A DNA stretch of 64,000 bases from a bacterium (GCA_016125385.1 WGLV01000013.1:26006-90005), one strand, 5' to 3'; shown: positions 979-57,721, numbered from the stretch's first letter. Numbers and translations: made by a program. Notes: a model not told the origin generated them from the sequence alone.

Positions 979-2130
979 ATGAATTTTCAGTTTTTGACTC
1001 CCACGCGAATCATCGCTGGACAGGGTTGTTTTGAGGGACTGGGCGGCGAAGCGTCCGCTCTGAGTAAAAAAGCGTTTGTATTCTGCAGCAGCTCGATGGA
1101 GAAATTCGGCTGGCTCAAACGCGCACAGGCCAGTCTGAAAGCCGCGGGCGTCGCCTCACAAACGCTGGTGAAAACGCCCGGCGAACCAACCGTCGAGATG
1201 ACCGACGCGGCGGCCGCCGCGTTACGCGAATCGCGCGCCGAGGTGGTCATCTCCATCGGTGGGGGTTCCGTGATCGATCTCGCCAAAGCCGCCGCCGGTC
1301 TGGCGGTGAATCCCGGGAGCGTAAAAGATTATCTGGAAGGGGTGGGCAAGGGTTTGACTCCCTCCAAAACCGCGCTGCCGCATATCGCCGTTCCCGCCAC
1401 GGCGGGCGCCGGCGCCGAGGTCACCCGCAACGCGGTGATCGCCTGCCGCAAAGAACGCTTCAAAAAAAGTTTCCGCTCGCCGACGCTGTACCCTCGGCTC
1501 GCCCTGCTCGATCCGGAATTAACCGCGTCGCTCCCCCCCCGGCAAACCGCCTTCAGCGGGATGGACGCGATCACTCAATTGATCGAATCGCACTTGTGCG
1601 TGAAGTCGACTCCATTCACCGACGCGCTGGCTCTGCACGGTCTCAGCCTCGCGATGGCCTCCATCGAACGCGCATTCGACGACGGCGCCGATATGGAGGC
1701 GCGAGAAAACATGCTGATCGCCAGTACGATCAGCGGCGTTTGTCTCGCCAACGCGGGGCTCGGCATGGCGCACGGCTTCGCCTCGGGGCTGGGCGCGATG
1801 TACGACGTTCCTCACGGCAAGGTATGCGCGATCCTGTTGCCTTTCGCGTTACGCTTTAACCGGTGCGCGCGGTTTCCCCGCATGGTTGAGATCGCCCGCC
1901 GCATCGTCCCGGGCGAACGCTTGCCGGGCAACGAACAGGTCGACGCCGCCATGAAGCGGATCGACGAATTGAATAAAAAATTCGGCATCCCCAAGAACCT
2001 CGCCGAATTCAACATTCAGGACGCCGATCTCCCCGGGATCGCGGAAAAATCGATGGGGAACAGCATGTCAGGCAACCCCAGCCCGGTCACGCCATCCATC
2101 GCTCAAACGCTGCTCAAGTCGATGAAATGA
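979..2130 (+). CDS. Iron-containing (group III) alcohol dehydrogenase
   Basis: 383 aa. GGGSxxD motif (ISIGGGSVIDLAKAAA), the metal-binding His-containing GMAHGFA region, and overall Fe-ADH architecture. Confidence 0.85.
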   Translation: MNFQFLTPTRIIAGQGCFEGLGGEASALSKKAFVFCSSSMEKFGWLKRAQASLKAAGVASQTLVKTPGEPTVEMTDAAAAALRESRAEVVISIGGGSVIDLAKAAAGLAVNPGSVKDYLEGVGKGLTPSKTALPHIAVPATAGAGAEVTRNAVIACRKERFKKSFRSPTLYPRLALLDPELTASLPPRQTAFSGMDAITQLIESHLCVKSTPFTDALALHGLSLAMASIERAFDDGADMEARENMLIASTISGVCLANAGLGMAHGFASGLGAMYDVPHGKVCAILLPFALRFNRCARFPRMVEIARRIVPGERLPGNEQVDAAMKRIDELNKKFGIPKNLAEFNIQDADLPGIAEKSMGNSMSGNPSPVTPSIAQTLLKSMK

Positions 2131-18452: not shown

Positions 18453-19238
18453 ATGAATCAAGAAGGCGGCATCCCGGGCGAACCACATCGTTCAGAGCCG
18501 AACCGCTCCGCTGAACGGGAGCTGAAGCGTATCGTTGAACTTCAGCGCAACTTTCTGCCCCAGCAATTTCCATCGTACCCCCCTCTTCATTGGGCGGCGA
18601 TGTATCACCCGTCGACCGATGTGGGCGGCGATTATTACGACGTGATTCCCATCGACGAAAACCGATGCGGCGTCGTCATCGCTGACGTGTCTGGACACGG
18701 AGCCTCGGCGGCGGTGGTAATGGCGCTGACCCAGATGGCAGTGAAGGAATTTCTGCCGCAATGCGATGACCCTGGCGAGGCGCTGCTCGTATTGAATCAG
18801 AAACTGAAACGCCACATGCTGCCTCATCATTTCGTCACCATGCTGATCGCCATCGCCGACGTCAGCCGGATGACGCTGTCATACGCTTCCGCCGGACACC
18901 CTCCCATGATCTGCCTTGAACACACCTGCAAATCGGTGAGCTTGCTCGACGTGGAACCGGGCTTCCCCCTCTGCACGCTGCCGGTGTCGTCGTATCCGCG
19001 GTATGAACGCCCGTTGAATTCGGAAGAGATTTACCTGCTCTATACCGACGGCGTGGTCGACACGCCCGATCCGCGAAACCGGTTTTTCGGCGACGACCGG
19101 CTGATGAAAACGTTAAAGAGCCTCGACACCTGCTCGGCTGAATTCGCCGTGCAGCATGTTTTTGAGCAGACGGAACAATACCGCGCCGGCGCCGAGCGCC
19201 TCGATGATTTTTCACTGCTCGCCATGGAGGTGAAGTGA
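18453..19238 (+). CDS. PP2C-type serine phosphatase (SpoIIE/RsbU-like catalytic domain only)
   Basis: 261 aa. Motifs GGDYYDV, ADVSGHGASAA, SAGHPP and YTDGVVD characteristic of the SpoIIE/PP2C phosphatase domain. No sensor or partner domain is present. Confidence 0.8.
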   Translation: MNQEGGIPGEPHRSEPNRSAERELKRIVELQRNFLPQQFPSYPPLHWAAMYHPSTDVGGDYYDVIPIDENRCGVVIADVSGHGASAAVVMALTQMAVKEFLPQCDDPGEALLVLNQKLKRHMLPHHFVTMLIAIADVSRMTLSYASAGHPPMICLEHTCKSVSLLDVEPGFPLCTLPVSSYPRYERPLNSEEIYLLYTDGVVDTPDPRNRFFGDDRLMKTLKSLDTCSAEFAVQHVFEQTEQYRAGAERLDDFSLLAMEVK

Positions 19239-50503: not shown

Positions 50504-50531
50504 GAATTTTCCCTCTAAGAATACGAAAAAA

Positions 50532-50557
50532 GGAGAACCGATCGGTTCTCCTTTTTT
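50532..50557. terminator. Bidirectional rho-independent terminator between rpmE (+) and the microcompartment operon (-)
   Basis: Perfect palindrome GGAGAACCGA|TCGGTTCTCC flanked by AAAAAA upstream and TTTTTT downstream, so it can terminate transcripts from both strands. Confidence 0.65.
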
Positions 50558-50578: not shown

Positions 50579-50890
50579 TCAGGCTGTCTGGGACTCCGTT
50601 TCCGACCCAACGTTCAACATCAGAACGCGGTGGACGCCGTAATCTGAAAGTTGTCTTGCCATCGCGGGAGAGCATTGTACGAAAAGCGTGATTTCATCTT
50701 TGCGTAATTTCCCGTTCACCAACAGCAAACGCCCCAGAGAATGAGCGTCAAGCAATCCCTCGCCGCAAAAGCGCATCCTCAACGCATTGGGGCTTTTTTT
50801 TATCGCTCCAATTGCGAAATCAGGAAACAATTCGCGTAATCTCTCGCCGGAATCGTCCGCGCGCGGATCAAAGTCATGTGCGGAGATCAT
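50579..50890 (-). CDS. Small hypothetical protein (103 aa) at the 3' end of the microcompartment operon; weak BMC-P (EutN/CcmL)-like pattern
   Basis: Segment RFCGEGLLDAHSLGRLLLV loosely resembles the EutN/PduN R-x-x-G-x(6)-SL-x-G-x-LLLV beta-barrel strand region, but the rest does not align well. Confidence 0.3.
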   Translation of the reverse strand: MISAHDFDPRADDSGERLRELFPDFAIGAIKKSPNALRMRFCGEGLLDAHSLGRLLLVNGKLRKDEITLFVQCSPAMARQLSDYGVHRVLMLNVGSETESQTA

Positions 50891-50908
50891 GACGCCGCAC
50901 AGCCCCGC

Positions 50909-52378
50909 TTACACGAAGCGCATGGCGTTGGCGATGGCGAAACGGCGGCGGCGGCTGAAGGTTTTTGGCGTACAGGGGCCCTCGCCTGACTTGCCCGCGA
51001 TGGTGAAGGCGGTGTATCCCTCGCCTCCATTGCCGAGGCAGGCGCCGCACGACGAATTGGCGACGAACAGGTTGCAGTCCATCAACTGAGCGAATTCGGT
51101 AATGCGGTCGATGCGCTGGGTATGAATAATGGCGGTATGTTTAAAGCCATGCTCGGCGTGGTGAGCGGCCTGAATGGCTTCTTCATAGCTGTTGCAGCGC
51201 ACGATGCCGAGCAGCGGAATCATCAACTCGTGAACGATGAAGGGATGATCGCGGCCGACTTCGGCGATCAGCAGATCGCAATTCGATGAAACCGTCACGC
51301 CAACCGCCTGCTGCGCGACGTAGGATGCATCCTTGCCGATATAGTCTTTATTGACGTGATCGTCAGGCGTGATGACGGCGCGCGTCATTGCTTCGGTCTG
51401 CTGGCGGTCGAGGAGGTAAGCGCCGCGCTGACGAATGGCGGCGAGAAATTCGTCATACACCGCCGATACGACAAAGCAGGATTTTTCGGTAATACAGGGC
51501 AGGTTGTTATCGAAACTGGAGCCTTCATACACGCTGACGGCGGCGTGTCCCACGTTGGCGGTTTCATCGACCACTACCGGGGGGTTGCCGGGACCGGCGA
51601 CGATGGCGCGTTTGGGGCTTTCCATCGCGGCGCGCACGACGGCCGGGCCGCCGGTGACCACCAGCAGCGAGATGTCGTCATGCGTCATGATCACTTTGGC
51701 GGTCTTGAGGGTGGGCTCGCTGACCGAGGTCATCAGGTTGGCGGGCGCGCCCGCCGCGGTCAGCGCGCGGTTGATCTCCTGCATCGATTGCAGGGTGCAT
51801 TGCACGGCGTTGGGATGCGGACCGAATACGATGGTATTGCCCGCTGAGAGCATCGCGATGGAATGGTTAATCACCGTCGCCACCGGATTGGTGGTGGGAG
51901 TGATAGTGCCGATCACGCCGAAGGGGGTGTATTCCTCCAGCATCATGCCTTTATCGCCGGTCTGGCAGTAGGTCGAGAGTTCTTCGGGGCCGGGCGTCAG
52001 TTCATACGCCAGCCGGTTTTTGATTTCCTTGTGGGAGGCGCGGCCCATGTTGGTGTCGCGCACGGTCATCTCGGCCCATTCGTGGTTGCGCTGTTTAGAC
52101 AGATCGCGAATGATCTGGATGTAACGTTTGCGCTCGCTGAGCGGAACCTTTGACCAGCGGGTAAAGGCCTGTTTCGCGGCGGCGATGGCGTCTTCGATCG
52201 AGTTAAACACGCCGTCGCGCCCGCCGCTGACCGCGCCGCCCATGCAGGTGGCGACGTGACCGCGCGGGGCGGTTGCGCCTTGCGGCTGGGTTTGCAGTTC
52301 GCTGAGAACGCGTCTTACGATTTCGGCGATTCGCTGGTCGTCCATCGGGATTCCGCTCCTGAACGGGAATTCTTTCAC
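50909..52378 (-). CDS. CoA-acylating aldehyde dehydrogenase of the EutE/PduP type, with N-terminal encapsulation-peptide-like helix
   Basis: 489 aa ALDH-superfamily fold with catalytic Cys region. N-terminus MDDQRIAEIVRRVLSELQ is an amphipathic helix of the kind that targets PduP/EutE into microcompartments. Co-located with pduL and a BMC-H gene. Confidence 0.85.
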   Translation of the reverse strand: MKEFPFRSGIPMDDQRIAEIVRRVLSELQTQPQGATAPRGHVATCMGGAVSGGRDGVFNSIEDAIAAAKQAFTRWSKVPLSERKRYIQIIRDLSKQRNHEWAEMTVRDTNMGRASHKEIKNRLAYELTPGPEELSTYCQTGDKGMMLEEYTPFGVIGTITPTTNPVATVINHSIAMLSAGNTIVFGPHPNAVQCTLQSMQEINRALTAAGAPANLMTSVSEPTLKTAKVIMTHDDISLLVVTGGPAVVRAAMESPKRAIVAGPGNPPVVVDETANVGHAAVSVYEGSSFDNNLPCITEKSCFVVSAVYDEFLAAIRQRGAYLLDRQQTEAMTRAVITPDDHVNKDYIGKDASYVAQQAVGVTVSSNCDLLIAEVGRDHPFIVHELMIPLLGIVRCNSYEEAIQAAHHAEHGFKHTAIIHTQRIDRITEFAQLMDCNLFVANSSCGACLGNGGEGYTAFTIAGKSGEGPCTPKTFSRRRRFAIANAMRFV

Positions 52379-52394
52379 TTGGGTCCGCCGCGCC

Positions 52395-53282
52395 TTATTT
52401 TTGCGGGACGATAACCACTTCGATGCCCCGCCGCGTGAGTTTTTCCATCGCCAGCGGAGTAATCAATCCGCCCCGAACGGCTTTTACCACGGGGCCTTTG
52501 AGTTTGTCGGCGTCTTCTTCGGTGATGATATACGTAATCAGATCGGGACTCTCGCTGTCGGCCTTGTTGGTCGCGGCGCGGTGCGTCTCTTTCAGCGCGT
52601 CCGGCGCGGGCAGCAGTTTCACTCCCATTTTGCTCAACTGGTTGCGATACCCGTCGAGAACCTCCTGCACGCCGGGCACGTTGTTGCCGAACACGATGCA
52701 GGCGTCTTTGGCGAGCCCCTCCGTCGACGCAATGGTCGGGACCTTATGCGCCAGCGCGGCGAGGTTGACCTTGAGCGCGTGGTCATCGGTGATGGCCAGC
52801 GCCAGCTTGGCGGCGTGGTTCCGGCACACCGACGGCATATAAACCGCCGCGTAACGGCTCATGTCGAGCCGCAGGGCCTGAATCTCATCCTTGCACTTGA
52901 TCAGCCGGATTCCGAGGCCGTTCAGCTCGGCCTCCGTGAACGCGCCGGGCGCGTCGGCGGAAAAAATCGCCTCAATAGTAACGCCTTCTTCGCGCCACAG
53001 GCGAAACGTTTTCTGATGAATATCCCACGGTTCACGCGCGCCGGTCAGAATCAGCAACACCGCCGGGCCGTCGAGGGGCGATGGAGCCGGAGCGGCCGCG
53101 CCTGATTTGGACTCCACAGTCTCGCCGCCGCATGAGCATGAACACGCCGGACTCTTGCAGGCGTTCGCGTCGATGGTTTCGGCGGCGCTGGGCGGAAGCA
53201 GGGTCGATTCGCCGCGCTGTTGCTCGGCGAGCGCCTTTTTGACCTCTTCAATGATGATGCGTTCCAGCTCGCGCGCGTCCAT
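52395..53282 (-). CDS. Microcompartment-locus protein of unknown function: encapsulation-peptide-like N-terminus, Cys-rich linker, Rossmann/flavoprotein-like alpha/beta domain
   Basis: N-terminus MDARELERIIIEEVKKALAEQQ (amphipathic helix), then CKSPACSCSCGG. The C-terminal domain has alternating beta-alpha pattern (AVLLILTGAREPW...; ...GIEVVIVPQK) weakly reminiscent of PF02441 flavoprotein folds. Confidence 0.4.
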   Translation of the reverse strand: MDARELERIIIEEVKKALAEQQRGESTLLPPSAAETIDANACKSPACSCSCGGETVESKSGAAAPAPSPLDGPAVLLILTGAREPWDIHQKTFRLWREEGVTIEAIFSADAPGAFTEAELNGLGIRLIKCKDEIQALRLDMSRYAAVYMPSVCRNHAAKLALAITDDHALKVNLAALAHKVPTIASTEGLAKDACIVFGNNVPGVQEVLDGYRNQLSKMGVKLLPAPDALKETHRAATNKADSESPDLITYIITEEDADKLKGPVVKAVRGGLITPLAMEKLTRRGIEVVIVPQK

Positions 53283-53407
53283 GTGTGGTTATCGTCTTCC
53301 GTGTAACGGAACGAGTTTGATTTTATGAATCCCCATCCGGCGGGGAAACGAGGCGAAAGCCGAATGATTTAATTCACTCGGCGTCCGGCTGGCTTCTCCC
53401 GGCGGAT

Positions 53408-54118
53408 TCAGGGGAGAATTTCAACCATCTCGCCGCCGCGCAACCCGCAGGCGTTGCCGTCGTCGGTATCGAGATGCATTTCGTCTTTAAACAGGTCGAG
53501 CACGCGAATCTGGCATTCTTCCAGAATGGTTTTCTTGCCGTTGGCTTCAATGCGAACCCGAACGCTCTGATTGTCGCTCAACCCCCATTTTTTCGCCGAT
53601 TCCACCGAAATGTGAATGTGGCGGTTAGCGAGAATCACGCCCTTCTGAAGGTGCAACACGCCATGAGGCCCGACGAGAATCAGTTTTTCGCTATTGGTAT
53701 GGTCGCCCGAACGGTTCACCGGCGGATCGATGCCCAGATAGATGGCGTCGGTACGCGAGACCTCCACCTGAGTGTATTTGCGCAACGGCCCCAGAATACG
53801 GACTTCGCCCAGGCAGCGCATGCGCGGCCCGACCAGCGTCAGCGTCTGCTTTGACGCGAATTCACCGGTCTGGTAGAGGGGGCGCAATACTTCCAGCTCG
53901 GAACCTGGCCCGTACAGCGCGTCCATGCTTTTCCGGTCGAGGTGAATGTGCCGGACGGAGATATTACAGGGGACCAGCATCTTGCCGCCCGGCGCTGACG
54001 CCGGTGGCGTGGAGGCGAGTTCGCCCTGCAGCCGCGCCACTACGCGGCGCGTGATCTGCTCAACCAGGGCGTCGTTCAGATTCGGGGAAGACATACCTGC
54101 AATTTCCCTTCGATCCAC
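53408..54118 (-). CDS. pduL: Phosphate propanoyl/acetyl-transferase PduL (PTAC) with N-terminal encapsulation-peptide-like helix
   Basis: Two PduL half-repeats containing the RH(I/V)H motif (ISVRHIHLDRKSMDAL and ANRHIHISVESAKKWGL). N-terminal LNDALVEQITRRVVARLQ amphipathic helix. Confidence 0.85.
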   Translation of the reverse strand: MDRREIAGMSSPNLNDALVEQITRRVVARLQGELASTPPASAPGGKMLVPCNISVRHIHLDRKSMDALYGPGSELEVLRPLYQTGEFASKQTLTLVGPRMRCLGEVRILGPLRKYTQVEVSRTDAIYLGIDPPVNRSGDHTNSEKLILVGPHGVLHLQKGVILANRHIHISVESAKKWGLSDNQSVRVRIEANGKKTILEECQIRVLDLFKDEMHLDTDDGNACGLRGGEMVEILP

Positions 54119-54207
54119 GCGCGGGATTCAGGGCGGAGACGCGGAGCCATCCGGAAAAAGTTCACCGCCCAAACGTGCGCAAACCGGATTCACGCTGCGT
54201 TCGGGCG

Positions 54208-54253
54208 AAAACAATTACAGATAAACCAAGCGTGGCTGAGCGGCCACGCTTGG
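54208..54253 (-). terminator. Intrinsic terminator/attenuator directly downstream of the BMC-H shell gene (minus strand)
   Basis: 10-11 bp perfect inverted repeat CCAAGCGTGGC...GCCACGCTTGG (54226..54253) followed, in the minus-strand reading direction, by TTTATCTGTAATTGTTTT. Confidence 0.5.
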
Positions 54254-54318
54254 GCGTCGTTCGCAAACCGGAAAACGCGTTGCGAAACCAGACGGGCCGT
54301 CCGCGCCGTCCAGCCGCA

Positions 54319-54612
54319 TCAGCCTTTCGCGGGCAGAATGGCTTCCAGGTCCGAATGAGGACGCGGAATGACGTGAACCGAAACGACTTCGCCCACTTTG
54401 CGGGCCGCCGCCGCGCCAGCGTCCGTCGCGGCTTTCACCGCGCCGACGTCGCCGCGCACCATCACGGTCACGAAACCACCGCCGATTTTTTCCTTGCCGA
54501 TGAGCGTAACGCTCGCCGCTTTCACCATCGCATCGGCCGCTTCAATAGCGCCGACCAGACCGCGTGTTTCAACCAGGCCAAGAGCTTTCCCTTCCACGGG
54601 AATATCCTCCAT
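54319..54612 (-). CDS. Bacterial microcompartment hexameric shell protein (BMC-H; PduA/EutM/CcmK family)
   Basis: 97 aa. [60 protein letters not shown] is an almost textbook BMC (Pfam PF00936) domain. Confidence 0.92.
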
Positions 54613-54731
54613 CGTTGTAACGTTGATTTGACGAAAGTTACGAAAACGCGGATCAAGACCCGCTTTTTCGCGGCTTTACGTTCTCGTAGGCTACTGAAAA
54701 GGGGATTGAGTGTCAAGCGCGGCTGGAACAA

Positions 54732-55715
54732 TCAGCCAGCCGGTTCCGCCGAAAATCCGGTTAATTCCGGCGATTTTGGGGATCCGGCGTTTTCCACCCG
54801 GCGCCAGACCGCGTCTCTCACCACCAGCGGCAAGGGGGCGTCTTCAATCGAGGGGTGGCGCGGCGCGGCGGAGTCGATCTTGTCGAGCGTGAATGCGTCG
54901 ATGGGCGCATCGAGCGACGCGGGATCGCTCAGATCGGGCCCGTCCAGGTGAACCGCCGACACGCCCTCTTCATGCGAATAAAAAAGATAGCGCGTCAGAA
55001 CCGCGCCGTCTTCAATCGGGCGCAGCTCTTTCAGATCGATCGGCATCTGCAGGATGAGGTCCTCACGCAATCCGGGGCGTTCCATGCGCGGCCGGCGATG
55101 CAGAAACAGGCAGGTCGCGTGCTCGTTTTTCACCGCGTTATCGACGACGAACACCGCGCCCGGCGGCAGCAGACGAATAAAACGCAACGTCAGATCGGAT
55201 CGCTCGGCAATTTTGCGGATCGAATCGCCCGAAAGCTGTTCCGATTCAAGCCGCTTGAGATGCCGAGGGCGCCAGAGCGACGCAATCCATACCGGGGCCG
55301 CCACCGTGACCAGCGCCGAACCGGGGTAAGCAAACCACCACGGAACGCGCAACATGCGCAAGATCAACACGCTTACGGCATGGGCCAGCATCACCCAGGT
55401 GATCATGTCTTTCAGGTCTTCCATATACGATCGGCGATCGGCGGCAGGCCAGAATACGTTCATCAAGGTGCGCAGAATCGCTGAAAACCAGAAAAAAGCA
55501 TAATGCAGTTCTTCCACCCAGTCCGGATACAGAACGAAGCGGCTGGTATCGGCCATCGCCAATCCGCCACCCATACGAATGAATGCTTCCATCACGTAAT
55601 TGATTTGAAGCGACGAGCCAACGACGATGCAGAGGAATACCCAGATCAACATAAGCGAACAGGTCGAGCCCGGCTCGATTCCCCCCTGAATAGTATGGAC
55701 ATAAACCGAACTCAC
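54732..55715 (-). CDS. Hypothetical membrane protein
   Basis: 327-aa ORF with several hydrophobic segments in the N-terminal half (LMLIWVFLCIVVG; ITWVMLAHAVSVLIL; LVTVAAPVWIASL) and no recognised motif. Immediately upstream, on the same strand, of the BMC-H gene. Confidence 0.4.
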   Translation of the reverse strand: MSSVYVHTIQGGIEPGSTCSLMLIWVFLCIVVGSSLQINYVMEAFIRMGGGLAMADTSRFVLYPDWVEELHYAFFWFSAILRTLMNVFWPAADRRSYMEDLKDMITWVMLAHAVSVLILRMLRVPWWFAYPGSALVTVAAPVWIASLWRPRHLKRLESEQLSGDSIRKIAERSDLTLRFIRLLPPGAVFVVDNAVKNEHATCLFLHRRPRMERPGLREDLILQMPIDLKELRPIEDGAVLTRYLFYSHEEGVSAVHLDGPDLSDPASLDAPIDAFTLDKIDSAAPRHPSIEDAPLPLVVRDAVWRRVENAGSPKSPELTGFSAEPAG

Positions 55716-55719
55716 CGGC

Positions 55720-56220
55720 TCAGCGGCGGCGGTCGTCCGAAGGCAACAACATTCTCATGCGGCGGACCACTTCATCTTCATTACGAATATCCGCCGCGAT
55801 TGTTTTCGCGTAATAATCCTCCGCCTTGTCGCGTACTCCCAACAGCGCGTAAGCGTCGGCGAGACGGAGAAACAGGATGGGCTGATTGGGCGAGAGGCGC
55901 AGCGCTTCCTGATATTTTTCCACGGAGAGTTTTAAAAAGGGAATCTGGGCGTTGCGATTATCGAACAGAAACGCTTTGACGAAATACTTGTCGCCCAGTT
56001 GCAGATACGTGACCGACCGTTCGCGCAGGTCCGACGATTGGCTGGAGAGAAGGGCGTCCAGTTGTTCGATCTCCTGATTGATCGTCTCTTTACTGGCGCT
56101 GCGGACTTCGCTGAGAATGAATACGGGCGTCGGCAGGGGTTTTTCCCACCGCAACGCTTCCACGCACGTCCAACCGAAGACGAGCCAGATCACGCCGAGT
56201 ATCACGTATAAAAAGCGCAT
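55720..56220 (-). CDS. Membrane-anchored TPR-like repeat protein (hypothetical)
   Basis: 166 aa. N-terminal TM helix (FLYVILGVIWLVFGW), then TPR-like helical pairs (YLQLGDKYFVKAF...; LADAYALLGVRDKAEDYY). Confidence 0.4.
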   Translation of the reverse strand: MRFLYVILGVIWLVFGWTCVEALRWEKPLPTPVFILSEVRSASKETINQEIEQLDALLSSQSSDLRERSVTYLQLGDKYFVKAFLFDNRNAQIPFLKLSVEKYQEALRLSPNQPILFLRLADAYALLGVRDKAEDYYAKTIAADIRNEDEVVRRMRMLLPSDDRRR

Positions 56221-56344
56221 GGTTTACTCATTCACACATAAATTCACTGCCGTGTATTGTACCTTTCAATCTCTGAAATCGCCGTCTCTACTTCGGCCCA
56301 TCCCGGTGAATCGGCGCGGGTTCGTGCGATTCCGCCCCGCCTGA

Positions 56345-57721
56345 ATGGAACAATATCACAAGCGCCGTTACAATGAACGACTGGAATACCGTACCTCCGG
56401 GGAGAAACCGATGACCGTTATGGATTTGCCCGTCATTCAGCCCACGCGCGTCAAGCCGCTGCAGTCGGTGTTAATCAAACCGACCGGCGCCGACTGCAAC
56501 CTCGATTGCGTCTACTGCTTCTACCTCGAAAAAGCCGAGCTCTACCCCAACGCCAAAGTCCATCGCATGAGCGTCGAAGTGTTGGAAGAAATGGTCCGCC
56601 AGATTATGAACGACGGCGGACAGCAGGTGTCGTTCGGCTGGCAGGGCGGCGAACCCACCATGATGGGAGTCGATTTTTTTCGCAAGGCGGTTGAATTCCA
56701 ACAGAAGTACGGCCGGCGCGGCCAGGTGGTCGGCAACGGCCTGCAAACCAACGGCCTGCTGATTAACGAAGAATGGTGCGAATTTCTTCGGGAATACCAG
56801 TTTCTGGTGGGGCTGTCGCTCGACGGGCCTGAACACATTCACGACAAATACCGTTTCACCAAGGGCGGTCGCCCCTCGTGGGAACGCGTGCGCGAATCGG
56901 GACGACTGATGCTCGACCGGGGCGTCGCGGTCAACGCGCTGGTGGTGGTCAACGATTATTCGTGCAACTACGCCGATGAAATCTATGATTTTCATAAAGA
57001 CATGGGGTTTGAATTCATGCAGTTCATCCCCTGCGTCGAACTCGATCACGCCGACTCAAGCCGAGCGGCGTCCTGGTCGGTTTCGGCGGAGCAGTACGGG
57101 CGTTTTCTCTGCGATATCTTCGACCGCTGGAAGGCCGATTTCCGCGATGGAAAACCCACGACCTCTGTCCGCTGGATCGATTCGGTCTTTCACACCTACG
57201 TCGGTATGCAGCCGCCGGAATGCACTCTGTTGCAGGAATGCGGATGTTACGTGGTGGTCGAACACAACGGCGACATCTATTCATGCGACTTCTTCGTCGA
57301 ACCCGAGTGGAAACTGGGTAACCTGACCGAAGGCCGCATCATTGAGATGCTCAACAGCGAGCGTCAGCAGGAATTCGGCGTATGGAAATCGAAACTGCCG
57401 CCTGAATGCCCCGAATGCCAGTGGTTGACGCACTGCTGGGGCGGTTGCACCAAGGACCGGCTGCGCGATCCGCATGACCGGGGTTCGAATCACTTTTGCC
57501 AGTCATACATCATGTTCTTTGAGCACGCCGACGCCGAATTACGGCGGCTGGCCGACGAATGGCTGGAAAACCAGCAACGCGAACACGACGCCGCCGAGCG
57601 CCGTCTGCGCGAGCTGCGTCAATCCGTATCCGCCTCAACGCCCCCGGCGCCCGAGGTGGGACGAAACGAGCCCTGCCCCTGCGGCAGCGGCAAAAAATAT
57701 AAAAAATGCTGTGGAAAATGA
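56345..57721 (+). CDS. Radical SAM / SPASM-domain maturase (anaerobic sulfatase-maturating-enzyme-like) with C-terminal SEC-C zinc-finger motif
   Basis: CNLDCVYCFY (CxxxCxxC radical-SAM cluster). Multiple downstream Cys clusters of a SPASM domain (CTLLQECGC...SCDFF; CPECQWLTHCWGGC). The last 20 aa, EPCPCGSGKKYKKCCGK, match the SecA C-terminal SEC-C motif. An alternative start is at 56411 (MTVMDLPV). Confidence 0.8.
   Translation: MEQYHKRRYNERLEYRTSGEKPMTVMDLPVIQPTRVKPLQSVLIKPTGADCNLDCVYCFYLEKAELYPNAKVHRMSVEVLEEMVRQIMNDGGQQVSFGWQGGEPTMMGVDFFRKAVEFQQKYGRRGQVVGNGLQTNGLLINEEWCEFLREYQFLVGLSLDGPEHIHDKYRFTKGGRPSWERVRESGRLMLDRGVAVNALVVVNDYSCNYADEIYDFHKDMGFEFMQFIPCVELDHADSSRAASWSVSAEQYGRFLCDIFDRWKADFRDGKPTTSVRWIDSVFHTYVGMQPPECTLLQECGCYVVVEHNGDIYSCDFFVEPEWKLGNLTEGRIIEMLNSERQQEFGVWKSKLPPECPECQWLTHCWGGCTKDRLRDPHDRGSNHFCQSYIMFFEHADAELRRLADEWLENQQREHDAAERRLRELRQSVSASTPPAPEVGRNEPCPCGSGKKYKKCCGK

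Follow-up and report, generated by a model that had tools for sequence, protein, structure and literature searches.

A conserved four-gene bacterial microcompartment cassette with a single shell protein, three tagged enzymes, and the gene content of fragmented metabolosome loci

What kind of bacterial microcompartment (BMC) is encoded by a locus that combines a single shell protein with a phosphotransacylase (PTAC), an acylating aldehyde dehydrogenase (AldDH), and a 295-amino-acid protein of no evident family? The question is raised by a minus-strand gene cluster in a 64-kb stretch of DNA from a bacterium (GCA_016125385.1 WGLV01000013.1:26006-90005; hereafter the window, with positions counted from its first letter), which an initial annotation had described as a compact BMC locus that could be a satellite or a new functional type. 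We find that the locus is a real four-gene operon encoding one shell protein and three packaging-tagged enzymes, and that it is a variant of a catalogued, functionally cryptic kind of BMC locus, with the content of the catalogue type FRAG7 minus PduS-T and with homology to type FRAG2. It probably represents the part of a fragmented, FRAG2/FRAG7-like metabolosome that carries the enzymes, and supplies the major hexamer and the aldehyde-processing core. Three features go beyond the catalogue description, namely tags resembling encapsulation peptides (EPs) on all three enzymes, including the 295-amino-acid protein (which proves to be a flavoprotein), an autonomous conserved promoter, and a covarying hairpin after the gene for the hexameric shell protein (BMC-H).

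All of the open reading frames (ORFs) of the cluster lie at the positions given by the initial annotation, and four of them recur as a unit. BMC-H, PduL, flavoprotein, and AldDH follow one another without any change of order in 12 of 12 independent genomic contexts with differing flanks, comprising the window and the loci L002, L003, L006, L086, L088, L090, L095, L099, L100, L101, and L102 (L numbers are our locus handles). Exactly one BMC-domain gene is present per cassette locus in all 12, with 10-kb flanks included. A metagenome scan with the flavoprotein profile resulted in seven loci, all of which are further copies of the same cassette family. With its regulatory signals the conserved unit reads promoter, BMC-H, covarying hairpin, PduL, flavoprotein, AldDH (Table 1). 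The hosts are uncultured bacteria of a lineage with approximately 58% GC, labelled by NCBI as "bacterium" or "Candidatus Omnitrophota/Omnitrophica", and the window, which comes from an NCBI metagenome-assembled genome with the locus tag GC154_06275, may belong to OLB16/Hinthialibacterota.

Table 1. Features of the cassette and its surroundings in the window, and copies of the hairpin in other loci
Feature	Position	Strand	Basis
Conserved promoter of the cassette (sigma-70-type)	54688..54716	-	TTGACA 54716-54711, 17-nt spacer, TAGCCT 54693-54688
BMC-H shell hexamer protein, 92 aa	54319..54597	-	PF00936 and NF012018 profile matches
Terminator-like/attenuator hairpin in the BMC-H/PduL interval	54226..54253	-	terminator scan and covariation
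PduL-type phosphotransacylase (PTAC), 228 aa	53408..54094	-	PF06130 and NF011652
EP-tagged PF02441/HFCD-fold flavoprotein (PvmL-type BMC accessory), 295 aa	52395..53282	-	
CoA-acylating aldehyde dehydrogenase (AldDH, PduP/EutE type), 478 aa	50909..52345	-	PF00171 and NF011927
Small STAS-like protein at the operon end, 103 aa	50579..50890	-	
Bidirectional intrinsic terminator, common to the operon and convergent rpmE	50526..50557	.	palindrome
Hairpin copies	L002 9167-9195; L003 9108-9135; L088 9205-9232; L090 9257-9291		
Hairpin copies	L095 9270-9305; L097 376-409; L092 583-608		

The assignments of the shell protein and of two of the enzymes withstand profile searches. The longest ORF for BMC-H (54319-54612), whose BMC domain the initial annotation had marked for such a search, matches PF00936 (E 2e-29) and the EutM-like NF012018 (E 2e-38), can be aligned over its whole length with PduA, EutM, and the Haliangium HO BMC-H (Protein Data Bank matches with E values of 1e-33 to 1e-40), and retains the edge-lysine motif DAMVKAA, the GGG pore, and VIPRPH as interface motifs. 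This ORF extends to an ATG at 54612; the true start is the GTG at 54597, as a GGAGGA ribosome-binding site (54605-54610) followed by this GTG is conserved in the ortholog alignment, and the gene calls likewise give a protein of 92 residues. BMC-H is approximately 92% identical across the lineage compared with approximately 52% for the flavoprotein, and because of this conservation a BMC-H scan of the genome collection was filled by unrelated lineages (79 of 80 loci). For PduL, with its two RHxH motifs, the longest ORF (53408-54118) matches PF06130 (E 2e-62) and NF011652 (E 1e-65), and ortholog alignments with a conserved N-terminus place the true start at the ATG at 54094. The longest ORF for the AldDH (50909-52378) was correctly placed in the PduP/EutE group (NF011927, E 1e-172, 575 bits versus a cutoff of 403; PF00171, E 3e-38); its start is the ATG at 52345, a codon conserved in orthologs that are 51–69% identical.

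The cassette also carries its own transcription signals. A promoter begins 16 nt past the stop codon of the upstream gene, and its TTGACA (TTGACG in L088), 17-nt spacer, and TAG(C/G/T)CT align in seven of the seven alignable orthologous loci despite differing upstream genes. The promoter is kept whatever gene lies upstream, and the cassette is an autonomous transcription unit. The membrane protein encoded at 54732-55715, counted at first as a member of the operon, lies outside the conserved unit, with the conserved promoter between it and BMC-H, and is common only to the window, L002, and, by synteny, L088.

Both hairpins that had been annotated as terminators were recovered by a terminator scan. 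The first, between BMC-H and PduL, has an 11-bp GC-rich stem and a weak T tail (CCAAGCGTGGC-loop-GCCACGCTTGG, then TTTAT) and is found 54–79 nt 3' of the BMC-H stop codon in 10 of 11 cassette copies. Its lower stem varies by lineage (CCAA/TTGG, CAGA/TCTG, or CACGG/CCGTG), a T-A pair in the core is swapped for C-G, and the tails are T-rich. In the alignment, 97.2% of the cells are paired and four of the 11 pairs show compensatory double changes; the covariation score was reached by none of 500 shuffles, and slid registers pair only 26–44%. From the pairing, the compensatory changes, and the shuffle and register tests, the hairpin structure is under selection, and it may terminate a part of the transcription and so raise the level of shell mRNA relative to that of the enzymes. 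The second hairpin, at the operon end, is a perfect 14-bp palindrome between A and T runs (AAAAAAGGAGAACC-GATC-GGTTCTCCTTTTTT) that sits between the stop of the 103-amino-acid ORF (50579) and the end of rpmE (50503). A further small terminator-like hairpin is found at 54648-54663 (-) in the predicted 5' untranslated region of BMC-H (GCGGGTCTTGATCCGC, then GTTTTCG). No known RNA family was found in an Rfam scan of the locus.

PduL, the flavoprotein, and the AldDH each begin with an amphipathic helix that had been noticed as EP-like in the window and that proves to be conserved in every ortholog, followed in each case by a variable Pro/Ala/Ser-rich linker. The helix of PduL in the window is NDALVEQITRRVVARLQ and that of the AldDH is MDDQRIAEIVRRVLSELQ, each followed by its linker. 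The N-terminal consensus sequences are [ND]DALVEQ[IV]xRRVVARL for PduL, MDxxELERIIxEEVKKALAE for the flavoprotein, and MD[ED]QRI[AS]EIVRRVLxE for the AldDH, and the pattern [LI]xxI[IV]xxV[LVK]xxL is common to all three. A helix and linker at a protein terminus is the architecture of known encapsulation peptides, and by this analogy the three tagged enzymes would be packaged in the shell.

The 295-amino-acid protein had been annotated as an unknown with an EP-like tag; the tag stands, and the protein can be identified as a divergent flavoprotein of the PF02441/HFCD fold. Its family is small, with 35 clusters in 5.8 billion proteins, and 27 of 33 members match PF02441 (Flavoprotein) at E values up to 1, the best being 1.3e-5. 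The AlphaFold model (pLDDT 80.8) begins with a helix (residues 3-27); a disordered region that contains a conserved Cys pair and a linker rich in Pro leads to an alpha/beta domain (74-243), after which comes a small C-terminal domain (250-293). The HFCD Rossmann-like fold was found as a strong match, with DmrB/AfpA as the best structural match. Relative to the HFCD/PF02441 flavoproteins, among them DmrB/AfpA, EpiD, TvaF, PPC decarboxylase, and UbiX (14–15% identity), the protein has an additional EP, Cys pair, linker, and conserved 45-residue C-terminal module, and it lacks a conserved catalytic His.

The Cys pair, C42 and C47 (53142-53159, -), lies in the motif D-x-x-A-C-x-G-P-x-C-S between the encapsulation helix and the Pro-rich linker; C42 is invariant and C47 is present in at least 90% of family members. 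The pair, in a region modelled with low confidence, may be a metal site, a disulfide, or a shell contact. The C-terminal module (residues 250-295; 52398-52535, -) is the most conserved part of the protein, with the consensus ITEEDAxKLKGPVVKxxRGGLITPLAxExLxxRGIEVVIVP. It bears a weak resemblance to the N-terminus of an EutQ-like ORF in the Spirochaete BMC locus L058 (9746-9900; hhalign E 0.002, probability only 14%) and to PF15953 PDU_like (three of 33 members, E 0.059), and may be a recurring small domain associated with BMCs. A profile search of solved structures with the flavoprotein family gave only a weak match of the module, to glutamate dehydrogenase (E 0.13), which was treated as chance.

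Such a protein invites the proposal that it is itself the signature enzyme, an HFCD-type flavin enzyme that makes an aldehyde or thioaldehyde in the shell, so that the four genes form a complete pathway. HFCD enzymes perform flavin-dependent oxidative decarboxylations, and the fold match is strong; the protein is moreover EP-tagged and lies between PduL and the AldDH in every copy, and no other candidate signature enzyme is conserved beside the cassette. The family has, however, no invariant histidine that matches the HFCD catalytic His, and the best structural match, DmrB/AfpA, is of a redox carrier type. The homolog in Poribacteria lacks an EP, and in many BMC types with a different signature enzyme, PF02441 proteins occur as accessories. 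We regard this proposal as the least probable of the readings considered here.

The genes that are missing bear on whether the cassette is complete in another sense. No other BMC-H, trimeric (BMC-T), or pentameric (BMC-P) shell gene was found in the 64 kb by phmmer or by a 107-sequence BMC-P profile applied to six-frame ORFs, and no BMC-P gene lies within 10 kb of the 12 cassette copies. The phmmer approach works, as the same queries recovered pentamer genes in approximately 58 unrelated loci. Among 120 of approximately 8000 BMC-P profile matches listed, none is on a cassette-bearing contig, a result that is uninformative rather than negative. Pfam scans of the 49 window ORFs identified no aldolase, DeoC, glycyl radical enzyme, EutBC, PduCDE, PduS, or acetate kinase, and no signature enzyme is conserved in the 10-kb flanks of the orthologs. 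The absence of a signature enzyme, BMC-T, and BMC-P, initially reported for the window, thus extends to its immediate surroundings as represented by the 12 orthologous contexts, and the reported absence of acetate kinase from the window likewise holds. That of alcohol dehydrogenase does not, since an iron-containing enzyme (PF00465/PF25137) is encoded at 979-2130 (+), 48 kb from the locus and without a terminal extension. Its gene adjoins O-antigen ligase and glycosyltransferase genes of the cell envelope, and nothing ties it to the BMC.

These absences could mean that the lineage has no pentamer or trimer genes and that the single BMC-H forms open-vertex shells, tubes, or sheets carrying the three EP-tagged enzymes. 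Such a minimal compartment would account for the presence of one shell gene within 10 kb in 12 of 12 contexts and no other in the window, for the autonomy of the cassette from promoter to terminator, and for the very strong constraint on BMC-H relative to the flavoprotein. It is nevertheless distinctly unlikely, as every catalogued FRAG type has a BMC-P triplet elsewhere (PMC8217296) and the absence of BMC-P here rests on local searches of the window and 10-kb flanks. Poribacteria, which have a homologous gene trio, carry one or two pfam00936 genes and three pfam03319 genes per genome, generally in different regions (Kamke 2014, PMC3909097), and a complete metagenome-assembled genome of OLB16/Hinthialibacterota, a group formerly placed in Omnitrophota, encodes shell and vertex proteins (Williams 2022, PMC9324843). 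A more elaborate version, in which a lineage devoid of pentamer and trimer genes uses the cassette as a complete, portable one-shell-protein metabolosome, with the flavoprotein replacing alcohol dehydrogenase and PduS/PduT as NAD+ recycler and the attenuator hairpin setting the shell-to-cargo ratio, strikes us as highly improbable.

Comparison with the BMC catalogue points instead to a fragmented metabolosome. Sutter et al. 2021 (Nat Commun 12:3809, PMC8217296, Supplementary Data 2) define FRAG types, whose shell genes occupy as many as six separate sites and commonly include a BMC-P triplet. FRAG7, known from two Ca. Hydrogenedentes genomes, combines at one site a standard BMC-H, a PduS-T pair, an AldDh that bears an EP at its N-terminus, PTAC, and a pfam02441 flavoprotein, with the BMC-P triplet elsewhere, and in FRAG6 BMC-H lies beside a pfam02441 flavoprotein (PMC8217296). 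The cassette resembles FRAG7 in bringing together a standard BMC-H, an AldDh tagged N-terminally with an EP, PTAC, and a pfam02441 flavoprotein at a site with no BMC-P. The hosts differ, being Hydrogenedentes in the one case and Omnitrophota-labelled or unclassified bacteria in the other, and the BMC-P site is known for FRAG7, whereas the cassette is known here from the window and flanks. A literature search resulted in nothing relevant on FRAG types after the catalogue.

Homology, in turn, connects the cassette with FRAG2. This type is mostly found in Poribacteria, with outliers in "Candidatus Omnitrophica", Planctomycetes, Spirochaetes, and others, and for its "Omnitrophica" members mismatches to the hidden Markov models (HMMs) may justify a separate but similar type (PMC8217296). 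Poribacteria loci encode a TPR protein, BMC-H (77–79% identical), PduL (41–43%), and a flavoprotein homolog in the same order, and the window also has a TPR gene before the cassette. Their 248-amino-acid protein shares a homology with the flavoprotein that extends to the C-terminal module (hhalign 98%, E 1e-13), and in the flavoprotein profile search more than 80 Poribacteria proteins rank directly after the cassette lineage. In contrast to the cassette, no AldDH follows this homolog, which is without the N-terminal EP and linker (L014 11096-11842; equivalents in L009, L010, and L013). As these two parts are missing in Poribacteria, lineages may differ in whether, or in how, the flavoprotein is packaged. 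The definition of FRAG2 is a triplet of BMC-P genes plus two for BMC-H, and the cassette lineage is compared with it via the BMC-H locus only.

In terms of the catalogue, against which the initial annotation had proposed that the locus be classified, the cassette thus has the enzyme half of FRAG7, lacks PduS-T, and is homologous to FRAG2. Fragmented types of this content are already listed by Sutter et al. 2021, so that the locus is not a new functional type, and "satellite" is not the best word for it because FRAG types have no main locus. The remark that the locus is PVM-like in flavour was apt, since the 295-amino-acid protein belongs to the PF02441 group that the catalogue HMM table names PvmL and divides into nine sub-HMMs (Sutter 2021). 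The likeness to PVM comprises the AldDH, PduL, and the PvmL flavoprotein, together with occurrence in polysaccharide-degrading bacteria near the PVC group. PVM differs in that a single contiguous locus contains a class II aldolase as signature enzyme, multiple genes for BMC-H, three for BMC-P, and one for acetate kinase. None of these was found in the window or the ortholog flanks (apart from the single BMC-H of the cassette itself).

A satellite in the strict sense would nonetheless be an alternative if a complete main BMC locus, for example of a PVM-like or sugar-phosphate type, were present elsewhere in the genome with its own shell set and signature enzyme, the cassette adding a second hexamer and an aldehyde module. 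Satellites are a common kind of locus, and in about one-fifth of BMC genomes more than one type is found (Sutter 2021); fucose/rhamnose- and phosphonate-linked BMC use has been predicted in a possibly related phylum (Williams 2022, PMC9324843), and polysaccharide-degrading genes (CBM9, GH38, GH127, 3-keto-disaccharide hydrolase) are often found in the flanks. We consider this unlikely, given that a full AldDH and PTAC core with EPs is the content of a main locus, that the catalogue assigns this content to the enzyme location of FRAG7, a type with no other main locus, and that the cassette is kept intact across the whole lineage.

If the cassette is the enzyme-bearing fragment of a fragmented metabolosome, its operation can be sketched as follows. 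Transcription would start at the cassette's own conserved promoter, and BMC-H would be translated from its GTG behind the strong GGAGGA site. At the hairpin and U-rich tail after BMC-H a part of the transcripts would stop, leaving shell mRNA in excess over enzyme mRNA. Read-through RNA would encode PduL, the flavoprotein, and the AldDH, each of which, following the EP paradigm, would be docked to the lumenal face of the shell by its helix and flexible linker. Inside the shell, the AldDH and PduL would work as they do in characterised metabolosomes. The AldDH would turn an aldehyde into acyl-CoA with the use of CoA and the reduction of NAD+ to NADH, and PduL, which is described in Erbilgin 2016 (PMC4784909) as recycling CoA in metabolosomes, would regenerate CoA by making acyl-phosphate, which would exit for ATP formation in the cytosol. 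Based on the FRAG precedent, the pentamers, further shell proteins, and an aldehyde-generating enzyme would be encoded elsewhere in the genome.

The remaining step is the regeneration of NAD+. Like canonical metabolosomes, the cassette encodes an AldDH and a PTAC with EPs beside a shell gene; it differs in having neither a signature enzyme nor a packaged alcohol dehydrogenase, and in having a packaged flavoprotein in the slot expected for the cofactor recycler. Two routes of NAD+ recycling are known, via a packaged alcohol dehydrogenase and via PduS/PduT (MNdh/BMC-T), and pfam02441 flavoproteins, which recur in BMC operons, have been discussed as possible electron acceptors (Sutter 2024, PMC11626177). 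As the cassette is without both a packaged alcohol dehydrogenase and PduS/PduT, the co-packaged flavoprotein would most likely reoxidise NADH or relay its electrons.

Several points weigh against this account. The PduS-T pair that defines FRAG7 was not found in the 64 kb of the window or in the 10-kb flanks of the orthologs. Across the same window and flanks, BMC-P, BMC-T, PduS/T, and a signature enzyme were seen in no genome of the lineage. The window copy of the flavoprotein scores below the Pfam gathering score and has no Pfam match, it is a putative FMN binder by a motif resemblance seen by eye, and its role in NAD+ recycling is a conjecture. HFCD-fold proteins are not known as NADH oxidases. 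The phylum assignment of the lineage is uncertain as well.

The 103-amino-acid ORF after the AldDH gene is a real gene at the operon end, as annotated, and not a conserved part of the unit. A homolog is found only in L088 (12361-12651), and L102 (12368-12661) has an ORF of similar size at the same position; the gene is a subclade-specific passenger outside the conserved core. The 103-amino-acid protein, like the 295- and 327-amino-acid proteins of the window, matches no Pfam or NCBIfam family. Its predicted fold is STAS-like, with modest evidence and no match to the Pfam STAS family. At the site aligned by eye to the phospho-serine of anti-sigma antagonists, the window protein has Ser and most relatives have Asp or Glu. 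SpoIIE/PP2C phosphatases are the usual partners of STAS proteins in partner-switching modules, and a SpoIIE/PP2C-type phosphatase is encoded at 18453-19238 (+) of the window. A divergent pentamer was considered for the 103-amino-acid protein and rejected, as it has no BMC-P profile match and a different fold.

Upstream of the cassette, some of the genomes have genes for a TPR protein, for a radical SAM/SPASM protein that ends in a SEC-C motif, and for membrane proteins of unknown family, either one or two paralogs (window 55720-57721; L002 4287-7322; L088 5581-8504). The flanking polysaccharide-degradation genes are found at L100, L102, L003, L086, and L090 and, besides the families named above, include pectate-lyase-like genes; they fit a sugar-derived aldehyde substrate, with no single gene consistently linked to the cassette. 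The Spirochaetaceae locus L058 (2513-14732), used above for the comparison of the C-terminal module, has EutA/B/C/L-like genes alongside an AldDH that is extended at its C-terminus, a BMC-H extended by 60 residues at its N-terminus, four BMC-P genes of which three form a triplet, and an apparent class II aldolase with a C-terminal EP-like tail. With identities mostly read from the translations, it looks like a hybrid EUT/aldolase BMC.

These findings do not overturn the current understanding of BMCs. In candidate phyla, BMC loci of the fragmented, functionally cryptic kind are widespread; the cassette offers a compact handle on them, being a conserved four-gene unit that runs from promoter to terminator and could be expressed as is. 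All of its cargo is visibly EP-tagged, whereas EP searches in FRAG genomes mostly failed according to the catalogue (Sutter 2021). From the covarying hairpin that follows the shell gene, a natural rule for the stoichiometry of shell and cargo suggests itself, which shell engineers could use. With a flavoprotein packaged in the very position of the absent cofactor recycler, the cassette allows a direct test of a third way in which metabolosomes might regenerate NAD+.

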